From contig CAYHYM010000009.1 in the NCBI GenBank assembly GCA_964360965.1, forward strand, positions 1 to 30,400: DNA of 30,400 nt, written 5' to 3'. A program made the translations under genes and the position numbers. Below, in pieces: positions 3,058 to 24,492 of this stretch; the first letter of the stretch is position 1, and every line of letters begins with the position of its first letter. The notes beneath the pieces are model-generated. The model had not been told where the DNA came from. It ran no database searches and saw only the letters and a program-made list of their open reading frames with translations. Source of the stretch: an uncultured Gammaproteobacteria bacterium. Lineage in GTDB: Bacteria; Patescibacteriota; Microgenomatia; Daviesbacterales; UBA10151.

Positions 3058-4446
3058 TTAAAGTTTGAATCTTCTATCCGCTAAAAAAGGGTTGGGTTTT
3101 CTTTTCATCTCTCCTGTACCCAAAAGTATACCTCTTTGCAAAGTAAATTCACCATATTTGTTGTTAATTTGATCTATAGCTTGAATAATTTTTTCTTGAA
3201 CAGCTGATTCTGGTAATAAAGACAGATTTTGGGGAGTTTCACTCTTTAAATTAGAGATAGAAACTCCCACCGTTCTAATTTTATCTCCATTCCAGATAGT
3301 ATGAAATATCTTCCAGGTAGCTTTAAAAATTTCTAGACCATCACAAGTATATGGGATAGTTACTTGCATCCCATCACCATGGAACACACCTCCGAGGTGT
3401 AACTGCATTTCTTCACCTCGGAGGTGGAAGCTATATCTAAACCAGCAGTGGACAGTTCTACCAACTAATTTTTTAGCTCTCAACCTTCTAGCTACTAACT
3501 CTGTCAGTTTTAATAAAAGCTGTTTGATCTCCTCTAGGTTATTAGTATCATGAGAAGTAGTGTGCCTATGCCCAATACTCTTAACCTCTTCTTTCTCATA
3601 AAAAGGGATAATAGGAGCATGATTTATTCCACGACTGCAATCATATAAAAATTGCCCATAGCTTTTAAAATAAAAAATTAAAATATCAAGAGTTGCCTCT
3701 CTTAGCTGTTTAAAATTAAAAATTCCCAGTTTATTCAGCCTATTTTTAATCCCTGGACCTATTCCACAAACAGCATCAAGTTCCAGTTTATCCAAAACCT
3801 TAATTGCCTCTTTCTGATTGGCAATAATCACCAACCCATCTGGCTTTTGTAAAGATCCAGCAAGCTTTGCCAAAAGCTTGTTATATGAAATGCCTATGGA
3901 ACAAGTTATCCACTCACCAATTTCAGTTTTGATTCTTTTTTTAATGCTTTTAGCAATTTCTAATATGTCATCCCCGCGTAGGCGGGGATCCAATAAACTG
4001 TTAGCGCTATTATTTAATTGGATTCCTGCATTCGCAGGAATGACAGAAGTAGGTATCTCTAAAAACACTTCATCTATTGAAAACACCTCCAGATAGGGAG
4101 AATAATCTTTTAGAATATTTAAAAACTTTTTTGTTGTCTCCAAATATTTATCAGAATCCCCTGGGACAATTGTAATTTGCGGACAAAGCTTTTTGGCTTC
4201 CCAAATTTGCATGCCGGTTTTAACTCCGAACTTTTTAGCCTCTACAGAGGCTGCCCCAATCACTGTCCGTTCCCCGCCTCGACTCGCTCGCTCGTCGGGC
4301 GAGGCGGGCATCCTATCTCCACCAGTAACCCCAATTGGTTTTCCTCTCAGCCTGGGATTAGCCTGCTGCTCCACAGTAGCAAAGTAGCTATTAAAATCAA
4401 CATGTAAAATAGTTCTTATTCTTCTTCTACCATCTCCAGAAACCAT
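3058..4446 (-). CDS. dinB: Y-family DNA polymerase IV
   Basis: ILHVDFNSYFATVEQ, KPIGVTGG, SIDEVFLE, SIGISYNKLLAKLAGSLQKPDG, GIGPGIKNRLNKLGI. The ORF is interrupted in frame by three GC-rich elements. Confidence 0.9.
   Translation of the reverse strand: MVSGDGRRRIRTILHVDFNSYFATVEQQANPRLRGKPIGVTGGDRMPASPDERASRGGERTVIGAASVEAKKFGVKTGMQIWEAKKLCPQITIVPGDSDKYLETTKKFLNILKDYSPYLEVFSIDEVFLEIPTSVIPANAGIQLNNSANSLLDPRLRGDDILEIAKSIKKRIKTEIGEWITCSIGISYNKLLAKLAGSLQKPDGLVIIANQKEAIKVLDKLELDAVCGIGPGIKNRLNKLGIFNFKQLREATLDILIFYFKSYGQFLYDCSRGINHAPIIPFYEKEEVKSIGHRHTTSHDTNNLEEIKQLLLKLTELVARRLRAKKLVGRTVHCWFRYSFHLRGEEMQLHLGGVFHGDGMQVTIPYTCDGLEIFKATWKIFHTIWNGDKIRTVGVSISNLKSETPQNLSLLPESAVQEKIIQAIDQINNKYGEFTLQRGILLGTGEMKRKPNPFLADRRFKL
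3386..3426. repeat. pair of inverted REP-like hairpins inside dinB
   Basis: ACACCTCCGAGGTGT (3386-3400) and CACCTCGGAGGTG (3414-3426) are mutual reverse complements. Translated in frame as HLRGEEMQLHLGGV. Confidence 0.7.
3967..4044. mobile_element. 78-nt MITE-like element with terminal inverted repeats, in frame in dinB
   Basis: Left end GTCATCCCCGCGTAGGCGGGGATCCAAT. Right end ATTGGATTCCTGCATTCGCAGGAATGAC, the reverse complement of GTCATTCCTGCGAATGCAGGAATCCAAT. Encodes VIPANAGIQLNNSANSLLDPRLRGDD (26 codons). Confidence 0.75.
4266..4310. repeat. GC-rich hairpin insertion inside dinB
   Basis: CCCGCCTCG (4273-4281) pairs with CGAGGCGGG (4300-4308). Encodes PASPDERASRGGE between the conserved blocks KPIGVTGG and VIGAASVEAKKFGV. 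Confidence 0.65.
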
Positions 4447-4688
4447 TTCATTCTGCCTACATCAAATTTAAGTCTGTAAAAATTACCTCCGGAAGAGCAG
4501 GAAAAATGATAAAAAATATGGCTGCCATCTTTACTGGTATGGACCAGATTTATTTTTTCTATTTTAATTTTTCTGCCATGCCAGAAAAAAATATGAGGTT
4601 TAATAGAGGCTTTTTCAAAAAATACCCAAACACTCACGGGTTCTTGGATTTCTAGCATATCTACTAATATAACCCTAAGGAAACCCAA
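4416..4688 (-). CDS. hypothetical small protein overlapping the dinB start
   Basis: 90-aa ORF from TTG at 4688, preceded by GAAGGG 7 nt upstream. An alternative ATG lies at 4658. Its 3' end overlaps the dinB start by 31 nt. No family recognised. Confidence 0.45.
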   Translation of the reverse strand: MGFLRVILVDMLEIQEPVSVWVFFEKASIKPHIFFWHGRKIKIEKINLVHTSKDGSHIFYHFSCSSGGNFYRLKFDVGRMKWFLEMVEEE

Positions 4689-4903: not shown

Positions 4904-6397
4904 ATGAAGATATTTGTTATAACGCTATTTCTCCTCTCATTTTTTTTAGTATTCAACTCCCCAGTCAAAGCCATAGTTGATCCCCTCTCTGTTCCTAACA
5001 ATAAATTTGGCATTCATATTATTCAAGCTACTCCTGATGAATCATCTCCGGCGGCCCAACTAGTCAACACCAACGGTGACTGGGGCTATATTACTTTTTT
5101 AATAGAATCCAAGGATAGAAATGAAAGTAAATGGCAGGAGTTTTTTAATGATCTAAGAAGAAAACATCTAATTCCGATTGTTAGGTTAGCCACCAAACCA
5201 GTTAATACTCACTGGGAAAGACCTTATGAAAAAGAGGGTGAAGCTTGGGCCCACTTTTTAGACAAATTAGTCTGGCCTACCAAAAACAGGTATATCATTA
5301 TCTATAATGAGCCAAATCATGCTCAAGAATGGGGAAATTTTACAGATCCTATTTCTTATGCCCATATTTTAAATGACACCATAGATACTCTAAAGAAAAA
5401 GTCTCCGGATTTTTATGTCTTAAATGCCGGTTTTGATGCTTCAGCCCCTCATCAACCACCTAGATTTTTTGATGAAGTAGTTTTTTTACAGGAAATGGAA
5501 AAGGCAGTACCGGGAATTTTTGAAAAATTAGATGGGTGGGTGTCACATTCCTATCCAAATCCGGAATTTTCCGGTTCTCCGGATGCTTTGGGGCGAGGCA
5601 CTGTTCGAACCTACGTTTGGGAACTACAGCAACTGCGTAATTTGGGTGTTTCGAAAAATTTGCCTGTTTTTATCACAGAAACCGGCTGGAAACATGCTGA
5701 AGGATTAACTTTTGAGCCTAGATTCCCTGCAGCAGATACTGTGGCCAGATATTACCAACAGGCTTTTGAAAATGCCTGGAACAGTTCCAGGATCATCGCC
5801 GTGACTCCATTTTTATTAAGCTATCAAGAGCCTTTATTTGCCCATTTTTCCTTTAAAGGACCCACCAATTCCGGACTATATTATCCTCAATATGACACCA
5901 TCAAAAACATGCCTAAAATTTCCGGCCAACCCATCCAGGAAAACAAGGCTACTTTAATCAAAGGTGAGGTCTTTTCATCCATTGTTTCAGGAGAAACTTA
6001 TACCATTTTTCTAACTTTCAAAAATAGCGGCCAATCAATCTGGAATGATGGCTCGCCTCGCTCCTCGCCTCGCGGCGAAGCGGGCGCGGGCGGAGCGGGG
6101 AAAAGGGTGGCTTTGGTGCCAATTGAAAGTGGCAGAGAATTGGGCATAGAACAGATATCCATTCCAGATGGGGTGCAAATTGAACCGGGCAAAGAATATA
6201 CCTTCCAAATTCAACTGAAAGCTCCGCTGAAGGGTATTTTTAAGGTTAGTTTGAATCTGTTTACCGGCAGCCACCCGTTTGATTCAAAACCACCGGTTAT
6301 TTTGCGCCTTTTAACTAAATTAAAATGGAGAAATTCTCCGGCCGGAGAATATATTTTAAGAACTATCGGCACCATAGGTGAATCTACTCAATTATAA
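4904..6397 (+). CDS. secreted clan GH-A-like glycoside hydrolase with C-terminal Ig-like domain
   Basis: Signal peptide MKIFVITLFLLSFFLVFNSPVKA. IIIYNEPNH (acid/base-type NEP motif) and VFITETGW (nucleophile-type TE motif). C-terminal beta-rich region carries a GC-rich insert. Confidence 0.5.
   Translation: MKIFVITLFLLSFFLVFNSPVKAIVDPLSVPNNKFGIHIIQATPDESSPAAQLVNTNGDWGYITFLIESKDRNESKWQEFFNDLRRKHLIPIVRLATKPVNTHWERPYEKEGEAWAHFLDKLVWPTKNRYIIIYNEPNHAQEWGNFTDPISYAHILNDTIDTLKKKSPDFYVLNAGFDASAPHQPPRFFDEVVFLQEMEKAVPGIFEKLDGWVSHSYPNPEFSGSPDALGRGTVRTYVWELQQLRNLGVSKNLPVFITETGWKHAEGLTFEPRFPAADTVARYYQQAFENAWNSSRIIAVTPFLLSYQEPLFAHFSFKGPTNSGLYYPQYDTIKNMPKISGQPIQENKATLIKGEVFSSIVSGETYTIFLTFKNSGQSIWNDGSPRSSPRGEAGAGGAGKRVALVPIESGRELGIEQISIPDGVQIEPGKEYTFQIQLKAPLKGIFKVSLNLFTGSHPFDSKPPVILRLLTKLKWRNSPAGEYILRTIGTIGESTQL
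6051..6100. repeat. GC-rich element (SPRSSPR..GEAGAGGAG family) in frame in the hydrolase gene
   Basis: GCTCGCCTCGCTCCTCGCCTCGCG+GCGAAGCGGGCGCGGGCGGAGCGGGG. Both blocks recur exactly in uvrA at 20723-20793 on the other strand. Confidence 0.8.
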
Positions 6398-6816: not shown

Positions 6817-6919
6817 TTGACAAGTAATAAATAGTATGGTTAAATATACTTACTTGTTAACCGAAAGGTTTACAAGTTCTCGAAGAAAGCCCCGCAAGGG
6901 GTTTTTTTCGTGGTAAAAT
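6817..6919 (+). repeat. 103-nt promoter-hairpin-terminator module, copy 1
   Basis: 102/103 identical to 8352-8454. Contains TTGACA-N17-TTAAAT, a 10-bp hairpin with GAAA loop, an intrinsic terminator, then TGgTAAAAT. Confidence 0.85.
6852..6908 (+). ncRNA. candidate ~55-nt small RNA (copy 1)
   Basis: Predicted start about 7 nt after TTAAAT (6840-6845). Hairpin CTTGTTAACC-GAAA-GGTTTACAAG (6853-6876). Terminator GCCCC-GCAA-GGGGT plus T-run (6886-6908). Confidence 0.35.
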
Positions 6920-7177: not shown

Positions 7178-7681
7178 TTATTTCAATAGGTTTTCAATCT
7201 GATTTACTGTCTCCTCAGGAGTTTGGTTAGTATTGTCAATTTTGTGTTCATTAAGAAAACTTAACTCATCCCTTAATCTATGATTAAAACGAATAGACTC
7301 TTCGTAATCTCGGAAACCACTATCCCTAGATTCAGTTAAAATTCTTTGCTTCAGCACCTCATCATCGCTAAGAATTAACGTGATGACTATGTATTTGAAA
7401 TCTTTTAATTCTGTTAAGATTGCACCAATTTTTTCTTCTGTAAAACCACCGACAATTACATTTTTATAATCATGTTTTGTATAATTTTTTAAAAGAAACA
7501 ATAAGTTCTCAAAAGACATCTTTTCTTCTGAGTCACTAGTATTACTCCAACCTTTATTAAGATGGAAATCTCTAATCCAATCATAATCTAAATGCACAGA
7601 GTTTAGTTTCTTTTTAAGAAGTCTTGCTAGTGTCGTTTTACCAGATCCCTGTGCACCTAGAATAAATATAAAGTCGTACAT
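7178..7681 (-). CDS. P-loop NTPase / small-molecule-kinase-like protein
   Basis: Walker A GAQGSGKTT at the N-terminus. Size (167 aa) and layout resemble AAA_33/shikimate-kinase-like kinases. Confidence 0.6.
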   Translation of the reverse strand: MYDFIFILGAQGSGKTTLARLLKKKLNSVHLDYDWIRDFHLNKGWSNTSDSEEKMSFENLLFLLKNYTKHDYKNVIVGGFTEEKIGAILTELKDFKYIVITLILSDDEVLKQRILTESRDSGFRDYEESIRFNHRLRDELSFLNEHKIDNTNQTPEETVNQIENLLK

Positions 7682-8351: not shown

Positions 8352-8454
8352 TTGACAAGTAATAAATAGTATGGTTAAATATACTTACTTGTTAACCGAA
8401 AGGTTTACAAGTTCTCGAAGAAAGCCCCGCAAGGGGCTTTTTTCGTGGTAAAAT
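8352..8454 (+). repeat. 103-nt promoter-hairpin-terminator module, copy 2
   Basis: 102/103 identical to 6817-6919. The only difference is C versus T in the terminator stem. Ends 9 nt before tRNA-Arg. Confidence 0.85.
8387..8443 (+). ncRNA. candidate ~55-nt small RNA (copy 2)
   Basis: Same architecture as 6852-6908. Terminator GCCCC-GCAA-GGGGC followed by TTTTTT. Confidence 0.35.
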
Positions 8455-8619: not shown

Positions 8620-8621
8620 CT

Positions 8622-8673
8622 CTTCGACTCGCACAATATAATTGTGCTCGCTCAGAGTAAACTCGAGTCGAAG
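8622..8673. repeat. palindromic GC-rich mini-element (GAGTCGAAGG family)
   Basis: Arms CTTCGACTCG (8622-8631) and CGAGTCGAAG (8664-8673). Inner palindrome CACAAT-ATA-ATTGTG (8632-8646). The right end supplies GAAGGG 6 nt before the GIY-YIG ATG. Confidence 0.65.
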
Positions 8674-8681
8674 GGCATTTT

Positions 8682-8936
8682 ATGTCTTGGTATGTCTACA
8701 TTGCAAAAGCAAAAACAGGTAGATACTACACCGGTATCACCACAAATCCAAATAAAAGAATTATTAAACATAACTCAGGTAAAGGTTCAAGGTTTGCCAT
8801 AGAACAAGGTCCACTTGAACTGGTCTATATCTCCAAAGCATTTCCAGACAAATCAAAAGCAAGAAAACGGGAAATTCAAATCAAAGGTTGGTCAAGAGAA
8901 AAGAAATTAAAACTAATAAGCGGAGTGTGGAAGTAA
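8682..8936 (+). CDS. GIY-YIG nuclease superfamily protein (YhbQ/UPF0213-like)
   Basis: WYVYIAK..GRYYTGITTNPNKRIIKHN...KREIQIKGWSREKK, the typical stand-alone GIY-YIG layout (84 aa). Confidence 0.75.
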   Translation: MSWYVYIAKAKTGRYYTGITTNPNKRIIKHNSGKGSRFAIEQGPLELVYISKAFPDKSKARKREIQIKGWSREKKLKLISGVWK

Positions 8937-9287: not shown

Positions 9288-10415
9288 TTAGGACCTTTTA
9301 GCGAGGGTTTTATTAAGATATTCTTCAAATTTATTTAGCGCTTCAGGCATATTTTCTCTACCAAATCCAATACGGAAATGCTTATTATCGTAATCATAAG
9401 CTGTAGAAGGTAGTAACATTATTCCAGCTTCTTGTACCACTCTTTGACAAAAATCAAAAGAATCTAAATCTCCTTCTATTTTTGGAAAAGCAATCGCTCC
9501 GGTCTTGGGCTTGACCCATGAAAATAAATTTTTGTATTTTTCAAAAAAGGTATCTAAAAGAGCAAGGTTTCTTTCTATCCTTTTAAGATGTTTTTCAATA
9601 ATCTTATCCTTTGCCCTTAGAGCTATTAAAGATAGAATTTCACTTGGAGCACTACTACAAATTGTGGTGTAATCTTTGAAAGTAGCCATTTTATTGTATA
9701 GCTCATTATCTTTAGTTACTAACCAACCTATACGAACACCAGCCATTCCAAAAGTTTTAGACATTCCAAATAAAACAACAGCTTTATCATAAATTTCGCA
9801 AGCAGAAGGTAATCTCTCTTCTGGGTTATATTCTAAAAAGCGATACATTTCATCTGAAAACACATAAAGGTTGTGTTGTTTTGCGAGATCAATAATCGCT
9901 TTAAAATCTTCTTTAGAAGGTAGATAACCAGTAGGGTTATGTGGAAAGTTTATGACTAATAATTTTGTATTGGGCTTAATGTTGTTTCGCAGAAAATCTA
10001 AATTGAATTGCCAACCTTTTGTTTCGTCGGGCTGCCATCTTGTAACTTCACAACCTATACCTTCTGCAATTTCATATAAAGATTGATAACCAGGAAATGT
10101 ACAGATAACATGATCTCCTTTTTCTAAAATGGAATTCAAACCAATAAATATTCCTTCTTCCGGTGCAGCTATAAGAACCTGATCTTGATTTATTCCCCGA
10201 TAAAGTTTTGCAACTTCAGCCCGCAGTAGCGGGTGGCCAAGTGATTCAGTATATCCTAAAGCTAAATCTTCCCATATTCTTTTTGTTTCATCGTCAGCAA
10301 GCTCTAAAACTTCTTTTTGTGAAAGCCCATCACAATCCGAACTTGAAAGCAGGTATTTAACAGAAAATTCATATTTTGCAAAATACCTCTCTAATTTAAA
10401 AGGTTGTAATTTCAT
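9288..10415 (-). CDS. class I/II PLP-dependent aminotransferase
   Basis: INFPHNPTG, FSDEMY, and SKTFGMAGVRIGW with the PLP lysine. Confidence 0.85.
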   Translation of the reverse strand: MKLQPFKLERYFAKYEFSVKYLLSSSDCDGLSQKEVLELADDETKRIWEDLALGYTESLGHPLLRAEVAKLYRGINQDQVLIAAPEEGIFIGLNSILEKGDHVICTFPGYQSLYEIAEGIGCEVTRWQPDETKGWQFNLDFLRNNIKPNTKLLVINFPHNPTGYLPSKEDFKAIIDLAKQHNLYVFSDEMYRFLEYNPEERLPSACEIYDKAVVLFGMSKTFGMAGVRIGWLVTKDNELYNKMATFKDYTTICSSAPSEILSLIALRAKDKIIEKHLKRIERNLALLDTFFEKYKNLFSWVKPKTGAIAFPKIEGDLDSFDFCQRVVQEAGIMLLPSTAYDYDNKHFRIGFGRENMPEALNKFEEYLNKTLAKRS

Positions 10416-13354: not shown

Positions 13355-14671
13355 TCATAGTAGCGCTTCCTTATTCCTTAGTTTTCTATGGAAAGTTAAG
13401 GCAAACCTGTGAGCTTCATCACGCAATTTTTGCAAAAGCTGCAAACTTAAGGATTTTTTGGAAAGTTTTATAATTCGAGCCTTGCGAGAATTACTCAGCG
13501 AAATTCGAGCCTTGCGAGAATTACTCAGTGAAGCGCTAATTTCTCCCTCCGGGGGATAGAGCCATTCCCTTCTTTTGGCCAGACCGAAGATGGGTAGATT
13601 GTGATTAGTAGTTTGTAGTTCGTAGTTTACCGCATTAACTTGTCCCTTGCCACCATCTACTATTATCAGATTAGGGATAGGCCAATCTTTGTGTTTTAAC
13701 CTTCTTCTGATCACTTCTCTCATCATTGCTACATCATTAGGTTTGCCGCTGAGGCGAATCTTAAATTTTCTATACTGTGATTTATCAATATCTCCCTCAT
13801 TTAAAACCACCATTGAACCTGTGGCATTTTTCCCTCCAATATTGGAGATATCATATCCTTCTATTCTTAAAGGTAAAGTTTTTAGATTTAAAACTTTTTT
13901 CAGCTCCTGCAGGGCCAAATTTTTTTGATCTTCGAAAAAATTAGAATTCTCCAAATAAGCCTGGACATTGTTTGGTTGAGTGAGATAATTTATTCCGTCT
14001 ATGATTTTTTTAAGTTTACTTGCTTCTTCAAACTTCTCTCTCTCTGATAGCTTTAACATATCCATTGTCAGTTCCTCAATTAATTTATCCTTTTTCCCGT
14101 CCATAAATTTTGAGAATCGGTTGATTATTTTGTTATAGTCTTCCTTGGAAATTAGCCCAACACAAACTCCTGGACATAATCCCAGATGATGATAAAAACA
14201 TGCTCGACGGGTTCGCAAGGCCAGGCCTTGCGAGGCTGAACACCAAGGGAAGACTTTCCTGAGTAGTTTGAGGGTGTTCCTAACAGTTCTAGCTGAAGGA
14301 AAAGGGCCAAAGAATTTTTTTACCCTTCTCAAATCTTGTTTTCTAAGAGTAATAACTTTGGGAAATTCTTCTTTGGTGATACCAATATATAAATAATCCT
14401 TATCATCTGTTAGTCTGACATTATATTTTGGCAAGTATTTTTTAATAAGACTCGCCTCTAAGATAAGCGCTTCCAACTCTGATGCAACAACAATAGTTTC
14501 AACTGAAGATATTGCAGAAGATAACATGGCTGTCTTTGCGCTCAGACCGAATCGGTTGCTGCGTGAAAAATATGAAGATATCCGATGGTATAAATTTATG
14601 GCTTTACCCACATAAATTACCTGACCATCTTTATTTTTAAAAATATATACCCCGGGTTTTTTGGGAAACAT
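13355..14671 (-). CDS. uvrC: excinuclease ABC subunit C, short form without (HhH)2 domain
   Basis: N-terminal GIY-YIG (PGVYIFKNKDGQVIYVGKA..LYHRISSYF), a UVR-like helix pair (EREKFEEASKLKKIIDGI), IEGYDISNIGG and RDEAHRFAL. The ORF stops about 20 aa after the last motif. Confidence 0.85.
   Translation of the reverse strand: MFPKKPGVYIFKNKDGQVIYVGKAINLYHRISSYFSRSNRFGLSAKTAMLSSAISSVETIVVASELEALILEASLIKKYLPKYNVRLTDDKDYLYIGITKEEFPKVITLRKQDLRRVKKFFGPFPSARTVRNTLKLLRKVFPWCSASQGLALRTRRACFYHHLGLCPGVCVGLISKEDYNKIINRFSKFMDGKKDKLIEELTMDMLKLSEREKFEEASKLKKIIDGINYLTQPNNVQAYLENSNFFEDQKNLALQELKKVLNLKTLPLRIEGYDISNIGGKNATGSMVVLNEGDIDKSQYRKFKIRLSGKPNDVAMMREVIRRRLKHKDWPIPNLIIVDGGKGQVNAVNYELQTTNHNLPIFGLAKRREWLYPPEGEISASLSNSRKARISLSNSRKARIIKLSKKSLSLQLLQKLRDEAHRFALTFHRKLRNKEALL
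13472..13531. repeat. 2 x 30-nt tandem duplication inside uvrC
   Basis: AATTCGAGCCTTGCGAGAATTACTCAG(C/T)GA twice, 29/30 identical. Encodes SLSNSRKARI twice. Confidence 0.85.
14203..14238. repeat. GC-rich palindrome inside uvrC
   Basis: CGCAAGGCC-A-GGCCTTGCG (14214-14232). Shares the GCCTTGCGAG core with the tandem unit at 13472-13531. Encodes ASQGLALRTR. Confidence 0.6.
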
Positions 14672-14673
14672 AA

Positions 14674-16665
14674 TTATTTATTCGAAGCAGGTTTTGCAAA
14701 ACGCCTTCTGTAGATAAGTGTTCCTAAAATGGCAAAGTATAAAACTGCCACCACTGCCACGAGTCCCAATGCAATCCAGGGAAAATTCTGTAGGATGAAA
14801 AATGGCCTGACCTTTATCTCATGTCGTTCCTTTATTCCTGCCACCTGAATCTCAATAACATCATCAAAGCTATCCAAAAGAGATTTAGTTCTGAGTTCAA
14901 ATTCAAACTGGGCAAATCCAAAGGAAGGTATTGGACCAGATTGGACAGCAGCCCCATTTAAAATGTTGACCTGTCCGGCATTGACAGATAAGTTTGATGA
15001 CGGAAGAGCGGCATTTCCCAAATTTTCTATTTTTATATTAATTTTATGGGGAAATCCTGCCAAAATTTGCTTTTTTACATCAATGATTAAATTGGGCTGC
15101 GGCTTTCCCAAAAAATCACTTTGTGATAGCTCCACTTTGACATCATGGCTGTCCATCCCGCTCAATTTATATGAGCCGGCAGGAACAGGCTGCTCTGATG
15201 ATGAACCTTTGATAACAAATACAAAATGATTTAAATCCAGCTTATTAAAATAATCAACTCCACCAGTGGTGTTTTGCCAGGTTGGATCAACCATTACCCA
15301 ACCTCGATTATCATCCCAATACTCAGGCCAGGCATGTAAAATGTCGCGAGACAAAGACAGCGGCCGCAACGCAAGATTGGTGGTATAGGCAAATCCGTCC
15401 AGCTCCCTGGCAGGGATCCCGGCAGCCCGGGTTAAGCTGATAAAAAGATCGGTAAATTCCATACAAACAGCAGAGGTTGGGTTATTTAAGGCTGTAACAG
15501 CGCCCAACCTTTCAATATTTTCATTGGAGAGCCTGGAAGTATCATATTGTAAAGTAGATATCACACTCTGATAAATTAGTTTTACCTTTTGCTCTGTTGA
15601 AGAGGGCTGATTAGTACTTAAGATTTCACTTAGTTTACTTTTAACTGTCGGGTGATCTTTTTCCCAATATTTTTGAGTGGTAGTATATTTTTGATAAAGA
15701 CCGGTCGGTAAGACTGGGTTTTTCACTTTTGTTAAGATATAAAGCTTGGCTGATCCGGTGGCCTTAACAGATAACTTTTGGGCTCTTTTCAGTTTATACC
15801 AGGCAAGATAATTACCATCCTCATCTAAAGTCACATTAATCGGCTTTGGCTCAATTCGCTGATAAATCACCTCCTGATAGGCTGTATCCGGAGGCAGGGC
15901 AATATTGGTGAGAACCGGTACCAGATTGGGATTTTCCAAATTATATGTCAAATTAAAATCATAAACTTGAAAACTGCCAAAAGTGGCGGAAACACCTGAT
16001 AATATCAACTGGTCTTTGTCAAATATTAAAAAGGTCCTGCCGGATGAGGTACTCTGTCGTTTTGGGGTGGGACTGATAATGGAAGGCGGACCAAAGCTTT
16101 GAGGAGTGGAAATTGTCAAATTATAACTTTGAAGACCGGGCGCTGATTGAATTTTGGGAGCGGATATTTCCCAGATTTTACCTAAATGCTGGGCAAAATC
16201 AGATGATTTAAAACTAAGGGTAAAAGGCTGCTCTTTTCCTACTCCCGCTATCTGCTGGTTAAACTTAACTGTGATAGAAGTTGAGGTATCTTTTTGCTCT
16301 GATGTCACCTCCATTAAGCCTCCTTGGTCTGAGGCTTTGATATCGGTAATTTGGGTGGCTCCAATAATAAGTTTAAACTGGCTGGCAAAATATTGACTGG
16401 TTAGATTCCTGAGGGTAATTTTTTCAGTAACTGAAGTTATTCCACTTAAGTCTATATCATAAGTTACATCATATGAGGTGGCAAAATCTTGTCCTGAGCT
16501 AGCTTGCCCTGAGCCTGTCGTACTTCGATTCCACTCAGTACGACCCTGAGTGTTAATCGAATGGGTCGAAGGGGTCGAAGGATCTTCGGCAGCAAAGACA
16601 GCAGTCAGTGAAAAGTAAAAAGTAAAAATTGAAAATATAACAGCCAGGAAAATTTTCTTGATCAT
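14674..16665 (-). CDS. transglutaminase-like cysteine-protease-fold surface protein
   Basis: Cys-His-Asp pattern: AVCMEFTDLF, ILHAWPEYW, WVMVDPTW. N-terminal signal peptide MIKKIFLAVIFSIFTFYFSLTAVFA and a C-terminal TM span. The ORF-track start at 16695 is possible but adds 10 non-signal residues. Confidence 0.75.
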   Translation of the reverse strand: MIKKIFLAVIFSIFTFYFSLTAVFAAEDPSTPSTHSINTQGRTEWNRSTTGSGQASSGQDFATSYDVTYDIDLSGITSVTEKITLRNLTSQYFASQFKLIIGATQITDIKASDQGGLMEVTSEQKDTSTSITVKFNQQIAGVGKEQPFTLSFKSSDFAQHLGKIWEISAPKIQSAPGLQSYNLTISTPQSFGPPSIISPTPKRQSTSSGRTFLIFDKDQLILSGVSATFGSFQVYDFNLTYNLENPNLVPVLTNIALPPDTAYQEVIYQRIEPKPINVTLDEDGNYLAWYKLKRAQKLSVKATGSAKLYILTKVKNPVLPTGLYQKYTTTQKYWEKDHPTVKSKLSEILSTNQPSSTEQKVKLIYQSVISTLQYDTSRLSNENIERLGAVTALNNPTSAVCMEFTDLFISLTRAAGIPARELDGFAYTTNLALRPLSLSRDILHAWPEYWDDNRGWVMVDPTWQNTTGGVDYFNKLDLNHFVFVIKGSSSEQPVPAGSYKLSGMDSHDVKVELSQSDFLGKPQPNLIIDVKKQILAGFPHKINIKIENLGNAALPSSNLSVNAGQVNILNGAAVQSGPIPSFGFAQFEFELRTKSLLDSFDDVIEIQVAGIKERHEIKVRPFFILQNFPWIALGLVAVVAVLYFAILGTLIYRRRFAKPASNK
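16491..16590. repeat. GC-rich composite element (CCTGAGC / GGTCGAAGG family) in frame near the N-terminus of the transglutaminase-like gene
   Basis: Contains CCTGAGC x3, GGGTCGAAGGGGTCGAAGG and the hairpin GTCGTAC-N14-GTACGAC. Encodes PSTPSTHSINTQGRTEWNRSTTGSGQASSGQD. Confidence 0.6.
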
Positions 16666-16749
16666 AATGTCATCCCAGAGAATACCGGGATCCATAAATA
16701 TTGTAGCAATTTTATTATGTCATTGCTAGCGAATGATGGAAAGCTAAAA

Positions 16750-16782
16750 TTTAGCTTGACACCTGAGAGGTGTAAACGTAAA
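16750..16782 (+). repeat. REP-like element upstream of the RAYT ORF
   Basis: TTTAGCTTGACACCTGAGAGGTGTAAACGTAAA with hairpin ACACCT-GAG-AGGTGT at 16759-16773. Exact inverted copy at 26126-26158. Confidence 0.85.
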
Positions 16783-16791
16783 ATAAATTTA

Positions 16792-17448
16792 ATGCCTGGA
16801 AGAAAAACTGTTTTTGAGAATGGATATTTTTATCATGTCTATAACCGGGGCTCTGAAAAAAGGGATATTTTTATAAAACCGCAAAATTATCAAAGATTCA
16901 TAAAAACTATGTACTATTATCAGTACGAGGGACCAAAACTAAGGCTTTCCCTACTAAATCAGGACGGATTCCAAAATTTTAAACCGGATCCCAGTAAGAA
17001 ATTAGTTGAAATTATCTGTTATTGCTTAATGCCTAACCACTTTCACATTCTAATAAAACAACTCAAAGAAAATGGAATTTCTAAATTTATTAGTCAATTA
17101 AGTAATAGCTACACCAAATATTTTAATACCAAATATAAACGTGTAGGAGCTTTATTCCAGGGTGTATTTCAGGCAGTTATTATTGAATCCGATGAACAGT
17201 TCATTCATACCTCCAGATATATTCATTTAAACCCGTCAGTATCAACCTTGGTAGAGAACCCTGCCAATTGGCCTTGGTCCTCTTATACCGAGTATGTTGA
17301 TAAGAAAAAGGGTATTTGTGTTAAAGAACCAATAATGAGTCATTTTCCTTCTGTGGAAGCTTACAAAAAATTTGTCTTGGATCAGCTTGATTACGGGAGG
17401 ATTCTCGAAATCTTAAAACACGGAGCCATTGATTATGATTACACCTGA
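16792..17448 (+). CDS. IS200/IS605-type Y1 (HUH) transposase, REP-associated tyrosine transposase (RAYT)-like
   Basis: YHVYNRG, the HUH motif MPNHFHILIK, and the catalytic-Tyr motif SRYIHLNP. Start set to ATG 16792, because the upstream TTG extension is made of REP sequence. The TGA stop lies inside a REP hairpin. Confidence 0.8.
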   Translation: MPGRKTVFENGYFYHVYNRGSEKRDIFIKPQNYQRFIKTMYYYQYEGPKLRLSLLNQDGFQNFKPDPSKKLVEIICYCLMPNHFHILIKQLKENGISKFISQLSNSYTKYFNTKYKRVGALFQGVFQAVIIESDEQFIHTSRYIHLNPSVSTLVENPANWPWSSYTEYVDKKKGICVKEPIMSHFPSVEAYKKFVLDQLDYGRILEILKHGAIDYDYT

Positions 17449-17457
17449 GAGGTGTAA
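17441..17457 (+). repeat. REP-like hairpin overlapping the RAYT stop codon
   Basis: ACACCTGAGAGGTGTAA is identical over 17 nt to 16759-16775 and in the same orientation. Confidence 0.8.
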
Positions 17458-17560: not shown

Positions 17561-17579
17561 GCTGACACCTGAAAGATGG
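17561..17579 (+). repeat. degenerate REP-like copy
   Basis: GCTGACACCTGAAAGATGG compared with GCTTGACACCTGAGAGGTG. The second arm is decayed. Confidence 0.4.
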
Positions 17580-18179: not shown

Positions 18180-21100
18180 TTATAGTATCTTTGCCAAATA
18201 TTGCCCTGTATAGGAGGATTTGATTTTGGATATATCTTTGGGGGTGCCTTCTGCAATAACTTGTCCGCCTTTATCCCCACCTTCCGGGCCTAAATCTATT
18301 ACCCAATCGGTATTTTTAATCACATCAAGATTGTGCTCTATAATCACCACAGTATTTCCATAGTTTACCAGCTTCCTTAAGATGGTTAATAACCTTTCTA
18401 TATCAGCAAAATGTAAACCGGTGGTGGGTTCGTCCAAAATATAAAGAGTGTGACCAGTTGGACGCTTAGATAATTCAGCAGAAAGTTTAATCCTTTGTGC
18501 CTCTCCACCAGACAGCGTGGGAGCTGGTTGGCCCAATTTTATATATCCCAATCCCACATCATTTAGTACTTGCAGTTTATTTTTGATATTGGGAATATTT
18601 TCAAAAAACTTTAAAGCTTCCTCAACAGTCATGTCCAAAACTTCAGAAATATTTTTATCCTTAAAGTGAATTTCCAAAGCCTCCCTGTTGTAGCGGGCAC
18701 CGTTGCAAGCCTCACAAGTCACATAAACATCCGGCAAAAACTGCATTTCAATTTTGAGCTGCCCTTCCCCTTCACAAACCTCACACCTTCCACCTTTGAC
18801 ATTAAAGGAAAACCTGCCTGGTCCATAACCCCTAATTTTAGCTTCAGTACTTTGGGCAAATAGGTCTCTGACAAAGGTAAAGGCTTCTGTATAGGTGGCC
18901 GGATTTGAGCGGGGAGTCCGGCCTATTGGTGATTGGTCTACCAAAACCACTTTATCCACATACTCTACCCCCTCCAGTTCTTTAAAAGCCCCTGGTCTTT
19001 CCTTGGATCTATAAATTTTTTGAGCTAACGCCTTATATAAGATGTCGTGAATTAAAGTAGATTTTCCGGATCCTGAAACCCCTGATATGGCTATAAACTG
19101 CCCTAAAGGAAAATCCACATTGATATTTTTTAAATTGTGTTGAGAAGCACCAAGAACCTTCAAAACATGATTGTCATTCCCGCGCAGGTCATCGACTCCG
19201 AGGTCGCTCAGACTCGAGGAGCGGGAATCTATTTTAATATTATTTATGGATCCCGTATCCCTTCGGCCTCGCTCAGGGCGGGCAAGTTCAGGATGACCGT
19301 GAACAGTCACTTTTTTCTTACCTGATAAATACTGTCCAGTTAAAGATGTAGTACTTTTTTTAATCTGATCCGGAGTGCCTGTGGTTACTATCTCCCCACC
19401 ATGTTCACCAGCTCCTGGCCCAATTTCAATTAATAGATCTGCATTCTCCATCATCTCTGCATCATGCTCATTAACTATCACTGTATTTCCCAAATCTCTT
19501 AATTTTTTTAAAGTTTCAATTAATCTTGAGTTATCTCTTTGGTGTAAACCAATAGAAGGCTCATCTAAAACATACAAAACTCCGGATAAACCCGAACCAA
19601 TTTGGGAGGCCAGCCTGATTCTTTGTGATTCTCCCCCGGCTAAGGTCATAGCAGCGCGATCCAGCGTTAAATAATCCAAACCAACATCAATTAAGAACTT
19701 AACTCTGGCTTGGATTTCTTTTAAAATAGGTTTGGCAATTTGAGTTTCACGATCATTTAAAATAGATTCTATCACTTCACTACGTTTCGCTCCAGAATGA
19801 CTATTCCCCAATCTTTTAATCCATTCCAAAGCCTCTTTAATAGATTGTGTCACCACTTCTGCAATATTTAATCCATCAATGGTTATTGACAAGGCTTCAT
19901 CTTTAAGTCTTGCTCCATGACACTTAGGACAAATCTCTTTAACCATATATTTTTCTATTTCCCTTTTCACATAATCAGATTCGGATTCTTGATATCTTTG
20001 TTTTAGGTATGAAACCAAACCTTGAAAGCTAGATTTAAAATGAGTCCATCTTCCCTCTCTGTTTCTTCCTTCCACTCTAAATTCTTCGTCCCCAGCACCA
20101 TTAAGTAGCACATTTCTGGCTTTCTCAGATAATTCACCCAGTCTGGTATTTAAATCAAAACCGTAAACTTTGCCTACTGACTGAATAAGTCTTGAGAACC
20201 AGGTTTCATGAGTGGCTAACTTTTGCCATGGTAAAATTCCACCTTCTGCAATAGATAAAATGGGGTTTAAAACCATTTCCGGATCAATTTCCAAAAGTGA
20301 TCCTAAACCATGGCAGGTAGGACAAGCTCCATGAGGAGAATTAAAAGAAAATAGTCTTGGTTCCACCTCGGATAAGGCAATATTGTCAACCGGACAGGCA
20401 AATCTTTCAGAATAAAGATGATCGTCCATTTTCTTGGGATTTTGGGGAAATTCTAAAGAAGCGTCCAGGACTTCAGAAACAATCACGGATCCTTCACCTA
20501 ATTTGAGCGCTGTCTCGATGGATTGGGAGAGCCTGTTTATAATGTCATTCCCGCGCATGCGGGAATCCAATTCCGAACGTGACTTTGTTAATTGGATCCT
20601 CCTCGAGTCTGAGCGACCTCGGAGTCGAAGACCTGCCTTCGCAGGGATAACAGACTTATCCAATATGAGTCTGTCCACTACTGCATCGATAGTATGCTTA
20701 TTAGTTTTAATCAACACTAAATCCCCCGCTCCGCCCGCGCCCGCTTCGCCGCGCCCTGCGTCGCCGGAGGCGCGAGGCGAGGAGCGAGGCGAGTCTGTTA
20801 AGTCTCTAATTTGTCCATCAACCCTAACCTTTGAAAAACCTTTTTTCCTCAAATCTTCAAAAAGTTGGAAATATTCTCCTTTTCTGTCTTTAACCACAGG
20901 AGCCAAAATCATTATTCTTCTCGAAGACCCTGAGCGAGACTTCGACGGTGAGTCTTTCGACCCTGAGCTCAAGACCGAAGGGCTCAGTCGAACCGCGTAG
21001 CGAGTCGAAGGGTTCCCTACCACTTGTTCCACAATTTGTTCTACTGACATTCTACTAATCTCCCTTCCACAAATTGGACAATGGGGATGGCCAACCCTGG

Positions 21101-21443
21101 CAAATAAAAGCCTTAAATAATCATAGACCTCAGTAGTTGTTCCCACAGTAGAACGTGGATTATGTGAAACACCTTTTTGGTCAATAGAGATGGCCGGGGA
21201 TAAACCCTCAATATAATCAACATCAGGCTTGTCCATTACCCCTAAAAACTGCCTGGCATAAGCAGATAAAGATTCCACATATCTTCTTTGACCTTCTGCA
21301 TAAAGGGTATCAAAAGATAAAGAAGACTTGCCGGAACCGGAAATCCCCGTTAAAACCACCAACTTGTTCTTGGGAATTTCCAGATCAATATTCTTGAGGT
21401 TATGCTCTCTCGCCCCTTTTATAATAATCTTATCTATAGCCAT
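18180..21443 (-). CDS. uvrA: excinuclease ABC subunit A, expanded by in-frame insertions
   Basis: GISGSGKSSL and GVSGSGKSTL Walker A motifs. Two LSGGE signatures (LAGGESQRIRLA, LSGGEAQRIKLS). Zinc modules CPxC...CxxCxG. 1087 aa. Confidence 0.95.
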   Translation of the reverse strand: MAIDKIIIKGAREHNLKNIDLEIPKNKLVVLTGISGSGKSSLSFDTLYAEGQRRYVESLSAYARQFLGVMDKPDVDYIEGLSPAISIDQKGVSHNPRSTVGTTTEVYDYLRLLFARVGHPHCPICGREISRMSVEQIVEQVVGNPSTRYAVRLSPSVLSSGSKDSPSKSRSGSSRRIMILAPVVKDRKGEYFQLFEDLRKKGFSKVRVDGQIRDLTDSPRSSPRASGDAGRGEAGAGGAGDLVLIKTNKHTIDAVVDRLILDKSVIPAKAGLRLRGRSDSRRIQLTKSRSELDSRMRGNDIINRLSQSIETALKLGEGSVIVSEVLDASLEFPQNPKKMDDHLYSERFACPVDNIALSEVEPRLFSFNSPHGACPTCHGLGSLLEIDPEMVLNPILSIAEGGILPWQKLATHETWFSRLIQSVGKVYGFDLNTRLGELSEKARNVLLNGAGDEEFRVEGRNREGRWTHFKSSFQGLVSYLKQRYQESESDYVKREIEKYMVKEICPKCHGARLKDEALSITIDGLNIAEVVTQSIKEALEWIKRLGNSHSGAKRSEVIESILNDRETQIAKPILKEIQARVKFLIDVGLDYLTLDRAAMTLAGGESQRIRLASQIGSGLSGVLYVLDEPSIGLHQRDNSRLIETLKKLRDLGNTVIVNEHDAEMMENADLLIEIGPGAGEHGGEIVTTGTPDQIKKSTTSLTGQYLSGKKKVTVHGHPELARPERGRRDTGSINNIKIDSRSSSLSDLGVDDLRGNDNHVLKVLGASQHNLKNINVDFPLGQFIAISGVSGSGKSTLIHDILYKALAQKIYRSKERPGAFKELEGVEYVDKVVLVDQSPIGRTPRSNPATYTEAFTFVRDLFAQSTEAKIRGYGPGRFSFNVKGGRCEVCEGEGQLKIEMQFLPDVYVTCEACNGARYNREALEIHFKDKNISEVLDMTVEEALKFFENIPNIKNKLQVLNDVGLGYIKLGQPAPTLSGGEAQRIKLSAELSKRPTGHTLYILDEPTTGLHFADIERLLTILRKLVNYGNTVVIIEHNLDVIKNTDWVIDLGPEGGDKGGQVIAEGTPKDISKIKSSYTGQYLAKIL
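19173..19297. mobile_element. TIR MITE-like element in uvrA with nested insertions
   Basis: The GTCATTCCCGCGCAG..GCGGGAATC end is split by a 33-nt element at 19188-19220. The GGATCC..TCAGGATGAC end contains a CTGAGCG/CCGAAGG-type segment at about 19254-19287. Confidence 0.65.
20544..20651. mobile_element. TIR MITE-like element in uvrA with one nested 33-nt insertion
   Basis: Intact end GTCATTCCCGCGCATGCGGGAATCCAATT. The other end, ATTGGATCC|CTGCCTTCGCAGGGATAAC, is split by TCCTCGAGTCTGAGCGACCTCGGAGTCGAAGAC (20600-20632). 108 nt, 36 codons. Confidence 0.75.
20723..20793. repeat. GC-rich element (SPRSSPR..GEAGAGGAG family) in frame in uvrA
   Basis: Reverse complement is CTCGCCTCGCTCCTCGCCTCGCG + 21 extra nt + GCGAAGCGGGCGCGGGCGGAGCGGGGG. 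The 23-nt and 26-nt blocks are identical to 6052-6100. Confidence 0.8.
20920..21013. repeat. GC-rich composite element (CCTGAGC / GTCGAAGG family) in frame in uvrA
   Basis: Contains CCCTGAGCGAGAC, CCCTGAGCTCAAGACCGAAGGGCTCAG and GCGAGTCGAAGGG. Encodes about 30 residues (STRYAVRLSPSVLSSGSKDSPSKSRSGSS) where canonical UvrA has a short linker. Confidence 0.65.
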
Positions 21444-21461: not shown

Positions 21462-21571
21462 GTCCGAGCTCTTCGAGTCCGAGCTCTTCGAGTCCGAGCC
21501 TCAGAGTCGAGGACCTCAGAGTCGAGGACCTCAGGGTCGAAGACCTGAGCGACCGAAGGGAGTCGAAGGAC
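21462..21571. repeat. GC-rich ~15-nt-period tandem array in the uvrA 5' region
   Basis: Units all start GTC(C)GA: GTCCGAGCTCTTCGA x2, GTCCGAGCCTCAGA, GTCGAGGACCTCAGA, GTCGAGGACCTCAGG, GTCGAAGACCTGAGCGACCGAAGGGA, GTCGAAGGAC. Confidence 0.8.
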
Positions 21572-23809: not shown

Positions 23810-23839
23810 TTGACATCTTCGGGTTGTGTTTGGTAATGT
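23810..23839 (+). promoter_or_regulatory. candidate lexA promoter
   Basis: TTGACA (23810-23815), an 18-nt spacer ending in TGg, then TAATGT (23834-23839). Confidence 0.4.
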
Positions 23840-23874
23840 TTAAGGTATGGTTCGACTTCGCTCACCATTATAAT

Positions 23875-24492
23875 ATGCCAGTTACCCTTTACAGAAGACA
23901 AAAACAGATTTTAGATTTTATCAAACAATATGTTGATAAATATGGTTATTCCCCTACTTTAAGCGAGATTGCGAAATCAATCGGAGTTTCTTCTTTGGCC
24001 ACAGTTCACGAACATTTAGGAGCTTTATCTAAAAAAGGAGTCATTAAGAGATTCGAAGGGGCTGTTAGGGGAATTGAGGTTTTAGATCAACAGATATCGC
24101 AGGCTTTAAGAGGGGTAGAACTGCCCATTTTGGGCTTTATTGCAGCAGGCGCTCCCATCATGCCCTATACAGACCCTGATGCATTATTAAATATCCCACC
24201 GTCTATGATAACAGGCAAGAGAAGGTCATATGTACTGCAAGTTAAGGGTGATTCTATGATTGAGGATGGAATTTTGGATGGGGATTTCGTCATTATTGAG
24301 GAACAGACAGAGGCCCGTGACGGTGATATCGTGGTGGCGCTTTTGGAAAATGGCCTGGCCACTTTAAAAAGATTCTTCCGTGAAGCAGGCAGGATCAGGC
24401 TGGAACCTGCCAATGCCGCCATGAATCCAATTTATACAGTAGATGTAAAAATCCAGGGCAAATGTGTAGGGGTAATTAGAAGGTTCAATTAA
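23875..24492 (+). CDS. lexA: LexA repressor (S24 peptidase)
   Basis: N-terminal wHTH (LYRRQKQILDFIKQYVDKYGYSPTLSEIAKSIGV), Ala-Gly cleavage site (FIAAGAP), catalytic Ser (VKGDSM) and Lys (ATLKRF). Start at ATG 23875 gives a canonical N-terminus. Confidence 0.9.
   Translation: MPVTLYRRQKQILDFIKQYVDKYGYSPTLSEIAKSIGVSSLATVHEHLGALSKKGVIKRFEGAVRGIEVLDQQISQALRGVELPILGFIAAGAPIMPYTDPDALLNIPPSMITGKRRSYVLQVKGDSMIEDGILDGDFVIIEEQTEARDGDIVVALLENGLATLKRFFREAGRIRLEPANAAMNPIYTVDVKIQGKCVGVIRRFN

Follow-up and report, generated by a model that had tools for sequence, protein, structure and literature searches.

What is the origin of a 78-nt palindromic segment that is read in frame as part of a conserved polymerase gene, and how could it have spread? 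The question is raised by a 30,400-nt stretch of contig CAYHYM010000009.1 (assembly GCA_964360965.1), hereafter called the window, from a bacterium that its DinB homologues assign to Candidatus Daviesbacteria (Microgenomates) within the candidate phyla radiation (CPR). The segment (3967-4044) is located in dinB, the gene for DNA polymerase IV (Pol IV). As judged by sequence comparison, it very probably is a member of the CGTC-1 family of repetitive extragenic palindromes (REPs) and, at the same time, a deletion derivative of a larger unit, in which the same two hairpins enclose ssn, a gene for a small GIY-YIG protein. The coordinates of the features are collected in Table 1.

The element and its host gene

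The element is a dimer of two inverted hairpins arranged head-to-head (HH), with their tags outside; the order across it is GTCATCCCCGCGTAGGCGGGGATCCA, a 26-nt AT-rich spacer and TGGATTCCTGCATTCGCAGGAATGAC. The hairpin at 4019-4044 is the reverse complement of GTC + ATTCCTGC + GAAT + GCAGGAAT + CCA. The two 28-nt arms are mismatched at six positions, four of which make up two compensatory stem pairs and two of which lie in the loop. In the dinB frame the dimer is translated as VIPANAGIQLNNSANSLLDPRLRGDD. Its presence is more than a chance effect, because the 12-mer GTCATYCCYGCG (tag and half-stem) was found five times in the window where 0.11 occurrences are expected, a count of five being reached in none of 100 shuffles, and because the 92-nt stretch around the element folds far better than shuffled sequences, both as DNA (-20 kcal/mol; z = -6.0) and as RNA (-33.9 kcal/mol; z = -5.0). 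Rfam at gathering thresholds detected tRNAs only, the inserted peptides matched no NCBIfam model, and a literature search for the peptides VIPAKAGIQ, LDSRLRGND and WIPAFAGMT gave no papers.

The identity of the host gene follows from Pfam (IMS 5.5e-40, IMS_C 7e-22) and from the NCBIfam DNA polymerase IV models (up to 2.4e-80, under the curated cut-offs). In the solved Pol IV structure 7yll, eight residues stand opposite the 31 residues 132-162 of the window DinB. The stretch between FSIDExFLEL and the IAxxIKxRI helix comprises 5-10 residues in six of 24 aligned DinB homologues, others being occupied by this element or by different repeats. A short loop was counted in 52 of 120 Daviesbacteria DinB homologues, and the loop of DinB P0118 is empty. 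An AlphaFold model built on the 24-sequence alignment, poor overall (mean predicted local confidence, pLDDT, 61; predicted template-modelling score, pTM, 0.31), places residues 134-159 as coil with pLDDT below 50 at a strand-helix junction, which is consistent with a loop insertion. At the sequence level, the 78-nt segment is thus confirmed as an insertion in a loop, predicted to be read as 26 extra residues.

A sequence-only reading of the window had described the segment as an inverted-repeat element of exactly 26 codons, in frame in dinB, with imperfect hairpin ends of about 28 nt around an AT-rich core, and had placed it in a loop of Pol IV. Sequence, coordinates and translation agree with that description, as do the arms, the low G+C content of the spacer (23%) and the loop lengths given above. 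The copies at the dinB site keep their stems paired via compensatory changes (GCG/CGC in the window, GTC/GAC in L122, CTC/GAG in L121, the latter two being related loci), and the spacer is partly kept (AATAGCGCTAA) in the orthologous dinB element of L122.

The loop of Daviesbacteria DinB proteins harbours at least three different tagged palindromes, all of which start at the same codon (S-V-I...). Among the homologues P0001-P0120, the CGTC-1 type was counted seven times, a GTCATTGC-type (e.g. VIARSE..TKQS...LAMT) 16 times and an HLRG type four times; seven further loops, classed by end motifs only, are possible remnants of the GTCATTGC-type. These types are scattered over a neighbour-joining tree, for which repeated insertion, a hot spot and in situ replacement are alternative explanations. 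A second variable DinB loop (window 3382-3426, residues ~341-355, FHLRGEEMQLHLGGVF) contains, twice in frame (CACCTCCGAGGTG, ACACCTCGGAGGTGT), the palindrome type found around a gene for a putative REP-associated tyrosine transposase (RAYT) of the window. The "HLRGV...TSEV" loops of other Daviesbacteria DinB proteins resemble this repeat, and two DinB homologues possess VIPAKAGI elements in the second loop. A third insertion (window ~4270-4310, residues 47-58, PASPDERASRGG) represents 12 residues encoded by GC-rich DNA, present neither in 23 aligned homologues nor in the solved Pol IV. At the start of the gene, a small upstream open reading frame (ORF; 4416-4688, minus strand), ending in ...KWFLEMVEEE and a stop codon, shares 31 nt with the annotated beginning of dinB; in place of the usual start codon of MRTILH, the window dinB has ATA, and the N-terminal MVSGDGRRRI may be a translated ribosome-binding region. 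The genes lexA (23824-24492), uvrB, uvrA, uvrC and dinB are all located inside the window.

Membership in the CGTC-1 family

The CGTC-1 REPs defined by Di Nocera et al. 2013 (PMC3733652) consist of a CGTC tag (variants TGTC and CCTC), an 8-bp stem starting with AT, a 4-nt loop and a CCA tail, occur mostly as HH dimers with spacers of 20-100 bp, and have been equated with Neisseria dRS3 and with RPE-6, a Rickettsia palindromic element (RPE) of R. conorii. Intragenic CGTC REP dimers encode 20-30 residues and recur in uvrA/B/C/D, recBCD, polA and error-prone polymerase genes, an excess in repair genes that these authors considered unlikely to be fortuitous; an association with a transposase was not found and an associated enzyme gene was not reported (PMC3733652). 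The characteristic features have been identified in the window element: TGTC at both ends; hairpins of the form ATCCCCGC-GTAG-GCGGGGAT-CCA and ATTCCTGC-GAAT-GCAGGAAT-CCA; tags outside, with a spacer of 26 nt (32 nt including the tails).

The oriented repeat has been redefined by Chenal et al. 2025 (PMC11893778) as NTS (CGTCATTCCCGCGMAVGCGGGAATCYRG), with a looser form called SRM. Its enzyme SsnA, a 94-residue GIY-YIG protein, binds NTS/SRM only in the form of single-stranded DNA (ssDNA), with cleavage a few bases upstream; the bases key to cutting and binding are GTC and the C 3' of the palindrome. Cleavage activity has been demonstrated for Neisseria and Wolbachia SsnA, and the Neisseria NTS/SsnA system modulates transformation. 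The ssn genes are typically flanked by the motif, and an analogy with insertion sequences was raised as a hypothesis (PMC11893778). The window hairpin at 3966-3993 differs from the strict NTS at five of 28 positions (own count), with GTC and the post-palindrome C present. On these sequence features, the window hairpins are members of the CGTC-1 REP family and are close to the NTS/SRM motif.

A scan with the 26-nt motif GTCATYCCYGCGNNNGCRGGRATCCA, limited to one genome per species, revealed at least 120 loci in Proteobacteria, Bacteroidota, Nitrospirota, Chloroflexota, Planctomycetota, CPR groups, Neisseria and others, where chance would give about 0.3 matches in the collection scanned (arithmetic with equal base frequencies). 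Among the 168 hairpins in the matches listed, 62 have an inverted partner, the resulting elements reaching 58-137 nt with unrelated interiors. In the same 168 hairpins, stem positions 6/21 (T-A 137, C-G 28, other 3) and 9/18 (C-G 145, T-A 19, other 4) covary, and the base 5' of GTC is C in 110 and T in 49. The HH arrangement of the window element was observed in 75 dimers elsewhere, across phyla.

A hairpin-ssn-hairpin unit with the same ends

At the Daviesbacteria locus L126, two hairpins of this kind enclose an ssn gene for a 94-residue GIY-YIG protein and together form a 348-nt unit. Over 32 nt at its start and 29 nt at its end, the unit is identical to the window element 3966-4045 (61 of 80 nt), and the 19 central nt of the window element stand in place of the ~287-nt ssn part. 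The window hairpin at 3967-3992 is identical to the L126 hairpin past the ssn stop codon, and that at 4019-4044 to the one that precedes the ssn ATG by 6 nt. The left/right asymmetry of the unit, i.e. an ATTCC stem with the tail CCAATTA on the left and an ATCCC stem on the right, is kept in both the dinB and the uvrA dimers. The dimer can be matched to the ssn unit because the 32-nt left and the 29-nt right ends are identical in L126.

A closely placed pair was found in the Daviesbacteria locus L121, where a 96-residue GIY-YIG gene between inverted hairpins (9629-9995) lies directly upstream of a dinB gene that carries a dimer. The ssn unit lies about 350 nt upstream of this dimer, and the right ends of the two agree in 38 of 40 nt, 12 subterminal bases among them. 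Alignment of the dinB upstream regions revealed that the window has no counterpart of the 367-nt L121 unit at the orthologous position. A hairpin-flanked 94-residue protein of Methylotenera (L040) shares 61% identity with the L121 protein, which possesses Y6, Y17 and E64 at the positions mutated in SsnA (SsnA positions: PMC11893778). Four further loci obtained from Ssn relatives all have the hairpin-ssn-hairpin layout, with two ssn copies in one assembly. A putative ssn gene flanked by the motif is present in L121, L126, L127/L128, L129, L040 and L101, and the proteins are Pfam GIY-YIG members with Y6/Y17/E64 in register. The Ssn protein search gave 7996 relatives at E <= 1e-5, the best 120 of these 7996 being 90-114 residues in length, mostly 93-97.

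The only small GIY-YIG protein encoded in the window (8682-8936) has a single domain, and its gene immediately follows two tRNA genes. As a candidate cognate nuclease it was discarded: the protein is UPF0213-like (PDB 1zg2, 4e-16) and 32-35% identical to Ssn-like proteins, and no CGTC hairpins lie beside the gene. Small GIY-YIG genes were also observed in L121, where a second one (7258-7503) is of yet another type, and in L124 (5524-5787).

Copies in coding sequences

When metagenomes were scanned for the inner ends (GCAGGAATCCAATTA and TTGGATCCCCGC, 5-35 nt apart), 16 loci with 39-45% G+C were obtained, the elements being 75, 78 or 81 nt long; a metagenome scan using the window spacer gave no matches. 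In these AT-rich, CPR-like genomes, copies with the same ends stand in frame in genes for a polyprenyl synthetase, Rho, thymidylate synthase ThyA (N-terminal part), a HemK-like methyltransferase, a PEP-utilising enzyme and a signal peptidase, and in DNA polymerase I, where the copy is placed between the exonuclease and polymerase domains. Further in-frame genic copies were found in a Parcubacteria tgt, a DNA methylase and a Massilia murF, the last one with a different frame combination. Long ORFs spanning hairpins in high-G+C genomes were mostly judged spurious and left out.

At all 15 distinct sites, the window, L121 and L122 included, the element length, counted from GTCAT to ATGAC, is divisible by three; the 75 dimers collected across phyla at any location are distributed as 33, 22 and 20 over the three length classes modulo three. 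The 75-nt consensus is free of stop codons in two of six frames (own reading). Most copies of the 75-nt family read VIPANAGIQ...LDPRLRGDD, and two sites read SSPRRRGS...WIPAFAGMT. The number of independent events is too small to claim a frame bias among genic copies.

According to the sequence-only reading, two more copies lie in uvrA in the same frame. This holds for the first of them (20544-20651), a full dimer split by an insert, which is translated as VIPAKAG[LRLRGRSDSRR]IQLTKSRSELDSRMRGND and whose core, AAGTCACGTTCGGAA, equals the core of the 75-nt family from metagenomes. The other (19173-19229) has to be corrected to a single interrupted hairpin; its possible partner, degraded at 19247-19297, falls in another reading frame (GHPELA...).

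Junctions and proposed mechanism

No target-site duplication (TSD) was detected at offsets 0-4 in 74 dimers when compared with shuffled flank pairs, which speaks against a miniature inverted-repeat transposable element (MITE) of the DDE type and fits an ssDNA-based chemistry. At the 15 distinct sites, the base before GTC is T in 13 and C in two, and the base after GAC is A in all 15. These constant flanks indicate either conserved ends, YGTCAT...ATGACA, or insertion between T and A.

A probable explanation, taken as a whole, is the following. The starting unit is about 350 nt long and carries a gene for a 94-96-residue single-domain GIY-YIG (Ssn-type) protein between two inverted CGTC-1 REP hairpins. 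An internal deletion very probably turned it into a non-autonomous dimer that keeps only both ends. The unit and its dimers would spread via ssDNA, the folded hairpin being recognised by the Ssn nuclease, which would cleave a few bases 5' to the GTC tag, as in Neisseria and Wolbachia SsnA. Judging from the surviving copies, those in genes would persist only where they are a multiple of three in length (3n), stop-free in the host frame and situated in a tolerant surface loop; upon translation they would then lengthen the loop, as has been described for Rickettsia RPEs. Whether Ssn is the mobilising enzyme, acting via recognition of ssDNA hairpins, is evenly balanced. A bolder and rather doubtful extension would regard the hairpin-ssn-hairpin unit as a true transposon of a so far undemonstrated class, driven by a GIY-YIG ssDNA nuclease, whose deletion derivatives in the gene-dense genomes of CPR bacteria became 3n, stop-free and "coding-compatible" and colonised protein loops, with resident hairpins as landing pads. 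The landing-pad view would account for at least three tagged-palindrome families starting at the same codon of one DinB loop.

Several observations weigh against this explanation. An Ssn-type gene was not found in the 30.4-kb window. The SRM pattern, in our own implementation, matches no window hairpin, the sole failing base being the last one (tail CCAA, where B is required). With a constant T at -1 and A at +1, the element length can be counted either as 3n or as 3n+2, and the nearest dinB orthologue with an empty site is only ~70% identical, so that exact junctions are not readable from it. The dinB-site element is common, in diverged form, to several orthologues, so that the window copy may be old and no longer mobile. 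Finally, the published Ssn work deals with ssDNA cleavage only (PMC11893778), and Ssn is not known to transpose DNA.

Alternative explanations

The strongest competitor, though itself unlikely, is that the hairpins are kept for the host and are not selfish DNA, serving as Ssn targets in ssDNA through which recombination or transformation near repair genes is modulated, as mRNA structures adjusting expression, or as peptides that alter DinB and UvrA activity. Such a role would agree with the compensatory stem pairing, kept even at one dinB site, with the modulation of Neisseria transformation by NTS/SsnA (PMC11893778), with the location of three of three intragenic hairpin sites of the window in dinB and uvrA, and with the REP excess, argued to be more than accidental, in genes of UvrABCD, RecBCD, Pol I and error-prone polymerases (PMC3733652). 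The family with the same ends is, however, also found in Rho, ThyA, polyprenyl synthetase, methyltransferase and signal peptidase genes and therefore is not repair-specific; the dinB loop is empty in 52 of 120 homologues and filled with other repeat types in others, the insert is modelled as a low-confidence coil (in a poor model), and copying from master units, to which the identity of the window ends with the L126 unit would correspond, could maintain stems equally well. Slightly less credible still is a REPIN-like origin, in which the dimers would be moved not by Ssn but by a Y1 (IS200-type) tyrosine transposase of the window. A RAYT-like Y1 protein is indeed encoded at ~16794-17448 (Pfam Y1_Tnp 1.9e-9; 4e-16 and 59 bits with the NCBIfam REP-associated tyrosine transposase model, whose cut-off is 80). 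Its gene is closely preceded by two hairpins, a degenerate CGTC one (16669-16694) and one of GTCATTGC (~16720-16739), and paired hairpins without TSDs are compatible with Y1 transposases as well. But this gene is bracketed by a palindrome of its own, ACACCTGAGAGGTGT (16759 and 17441, and inverted at 26135). Both the GTC tag and the CGTC-1 stem are missing from this palindrome, which is represented by a separate in-frame copy in dinB. A RAYT homologue was found near CGTC hairpins in none of 129 loci, whereas exactly these hairpins stand on both sides of five ssn genes, and the absence of a transposase association in the survey of Di Nocera et al. (PMC3733652) points in the same direction.

The two remaining possibilities are far more remote. 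A classical MITE, i.e. a deletion derivative of a DDE-transposase insertion sequence moved in trans with formation of TSDs, would share with the element its terminal inverted repeats, small size, AT-rich core and many copies, and yet has very little probability, given the lack of TSDs above the shuffled control, a full-length partner that encodes a GIY-YIG nuclease, and a DDE transposase in none of the 33 window ORFs scanned against Pfam. That no insertion took place at all, the segment being an ancestral, fast-evolving DinB loop that is palindromic by accident, is next to impossible: loop length does vary in all Y-family polymerases, but 61 of 80 nt are found unchanged at the two ends of a unit from another genome, which is intergenic and unrelated, the same sequence recurs in unrelated genes, and the motif extends across phyla. 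The origin of the dimer from a hairpin-ssn-hairpin unit is thus retained as the preferred explanation.

Relation to known systems and significance

Like the CGTC-1 REPs of Di Nocera et al. (PMC3733652), the element is composed of a 5' CGTC/TGTC tag, an 8-bp stem starting with AT, a 4-nt loop and a CCA tail, and both occur as HH dimers, with intragenic dimers in uvrA, uvrB and error-prone polymerase genes. The differences relate to the host, a CPR bacterium from a group outside the 2013 survey, to the tag, which is mostly TGTC, and to the end-for-end match of the Daviesbacteria dimer with an ssn unit. With the NTS/SRM-SsnA system (PMC11893778) the element shares the hairpin core and GTC 5' and C 3' of the palindrome; in related loci, a putative ssn gene between such hairpins resembles the NTS-ssnA-NTS layout. 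In contrast to that system, the window lacks an ssn gene and its hairpins depart from the strict NTS and fail the SRM at the last base, as given above; moreover, 2% of N. meningitidis NTS are intragenic, whereas the copies found here are mostly in frame in genes.

Rickettsia RPEs are likewise palindromic, stand in frame in housekeeping genes and are read as extra loop residues, in a small, AT-rich and host-dependent genome. The same behaviour is seen in the window: a palindrome in frame in a conserved gene, at a loop position, absent from many orthologues, with its translation predicted. Of the RPEs, only RPE-6 has the CGTC-1 hairpin. RPE-1, as reportedly described by Ogata et al. in 2000, is longer (about 100-150 nt) and unrelated in sequence to the CGTC-1 hairpin, and to our knowledge no encoded enzyme has been tied to RPEs. 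REPIN/RAYT and IS200/IS605 (Y1 HUH) systems resemble the present one in their paired inverted hairpins, 5' tetranucleotide tag, lack of TSDs, presumed ssDNA chemistry and an enzyme gene that lies between hairpins of its own. However, the REPIN tag is GTAG, while the element has CGTC, in the window GTC(A), and RAYT is an HUH tyrosine transposase as opposed to a GIY-YIG nuclease.

The sequence-only reading had compared the element to a MITE in architecture and to an RPE in behaviour, and had proposed to look for further copies, an autonomous partner with matching ends, TSDs and a frame bias. The RPE comparison is well borne out by the CGTC-1 features, by the equation of that family with RPE-6 (PMC3733652) and by the in-frame copies with the same ends in many genes. 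From the MITE comparison, the inverted-repeat ends and the many copies stand, but TSDs are missing and the partner encodes a GIY-YIG protein in place of a DDE transposase. The further copies were obtained from related genomes and metagenomes, and a candidate autonomous partner is found in the L126 unit. As to the frames, two of six are open and most copies use the VIP...GDD reading, with SSP...AGMT at two sites; a bias would need more independent events.

Both the repeat family and the in-frame occurrence of its dimers in uvrA, uvrB and error-prone polymerase genes are already known. New are the CPR host, the apparent autonomous/non-autonomous pair, the filled and empty ssn site beside dinB, and the uniformly 3n, coding-resident family. 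The spread of CGTC REPs, dRS3 and RPE-6 has been an open question since their first description, and the 348-nt unit, its 80-nt derivative with the same ends and the presence or absence of ssn beside dinB make up a compact pair for a direct mobilisation test. In addition, RPE-like decoration of proteins is common in a CPR lineage, which affects annotation and modelling of CPR proteins because loops and length differences can be repeat-derived, and the recurrence of REPs in uvrA and error-prone polymerase genes now extends to a distant phylum.

Other repeats and features of the window

The annotated 5' end of a transglutaminase-like ORF coincides with a degenerate hairpin (Table 1), which probably lies upstream of the real start codon, a downstream ATG.

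Table 1. Positions of the hairpin elements and the dinB gene (window coordinates unless a contig is named)
Feature	Position	Strand	Remarks
dinB (DNA polymerase IV, Y family)	3058-4446	-	insert forms residues 134-159, directly past the SIDE catalytic motif
Dimer element	3967-4044	-	two CGTC-1-type hairpins, 26 codons in the dinB frame; 3966-4045 with the conserved flanking T and A
"Right-end" type hairpin	3967-3992	+	GTC tag, 8-bp stem ATCCCCGC/GCGGGGAT, loop GTAG, tail CCA; preceded by T at 3966
AT-rich spacer	3993-4018		26 nt, 23% G+C
"Left-end" type hairpin	4019-4044	-	GTC tag, stem ATTCCTGC/GCAGGAAT, loop GAAT, tail CCA then ATTA; followed by A at 4045
Degenerate hairpin	16669-16694	+	7-bp stem, 6-nt loop, one mismatch; at the annotated 5' end of the transglutaminase-like ORF 14674-16695 (-)
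Single CGTC-1 hairpin in uvrA	19173-19229	+	interrupted at 19189-19221 by the 33-nt insert that the uvrA dimer also has; read IDSR...LRGND
Full dimer in uvrA (18180-21443, -)	20544-20651		75 nt plus nested 33-nt insert (20599-20631) splitting the right-hand hairpin
78-nt dimer in L144	6238-6315 of Ga0209514_10000005 (1,023,025 nt)		metagenome contig

The GC-rich insert shared by the two uvrA hairpins, TC(A/T)TCGACTCCGAGGTCGCTCAGACTCGAGGAG, comprises 11 codons, directly follows GCAGG in both cases and is oriented alike with respect to the hairpin; a related string is present at ~8620-8680, upstream of the UPF0213-like GIY-YIG gene. Another GC-rich element of ~50 nt (CTCGCCTCGCTCCTCGCCTCGCG...GCGAAGCGGGCGCGGGCGGAGCGGGG) stands in frame in ORF 4904-6397 (6052-6100) and in uvrA (20724-20793), where it has ~20 extra bases in the middle, and is read SPRSSPR..GEAGAGGAG. 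More GC-rich coding islands are located at 20973-21017 (uvrA) and 14199-14244 (uvrC).

The RAYT-like gene (16717-17448, probable start 16794) and its ACACCTGAGAGGTGT palindrome (16759-16773, 17441-17455, 17565-17579 and 26135-26149) form a second hairpin/enzyme system, apart from that of CGTC and Ssn. A 33-nt stretch of this region (16750-16782) recurs inverted at 26126-26158 with 100% complementarity. Tandem 15-nt repeats occupy 21497-21547, and a 103-nt direct repeat (6817-6919 and 8352-8454; 99% identity, 1535 nt apart) has a tRNA gene and several small ORFs between its copies.

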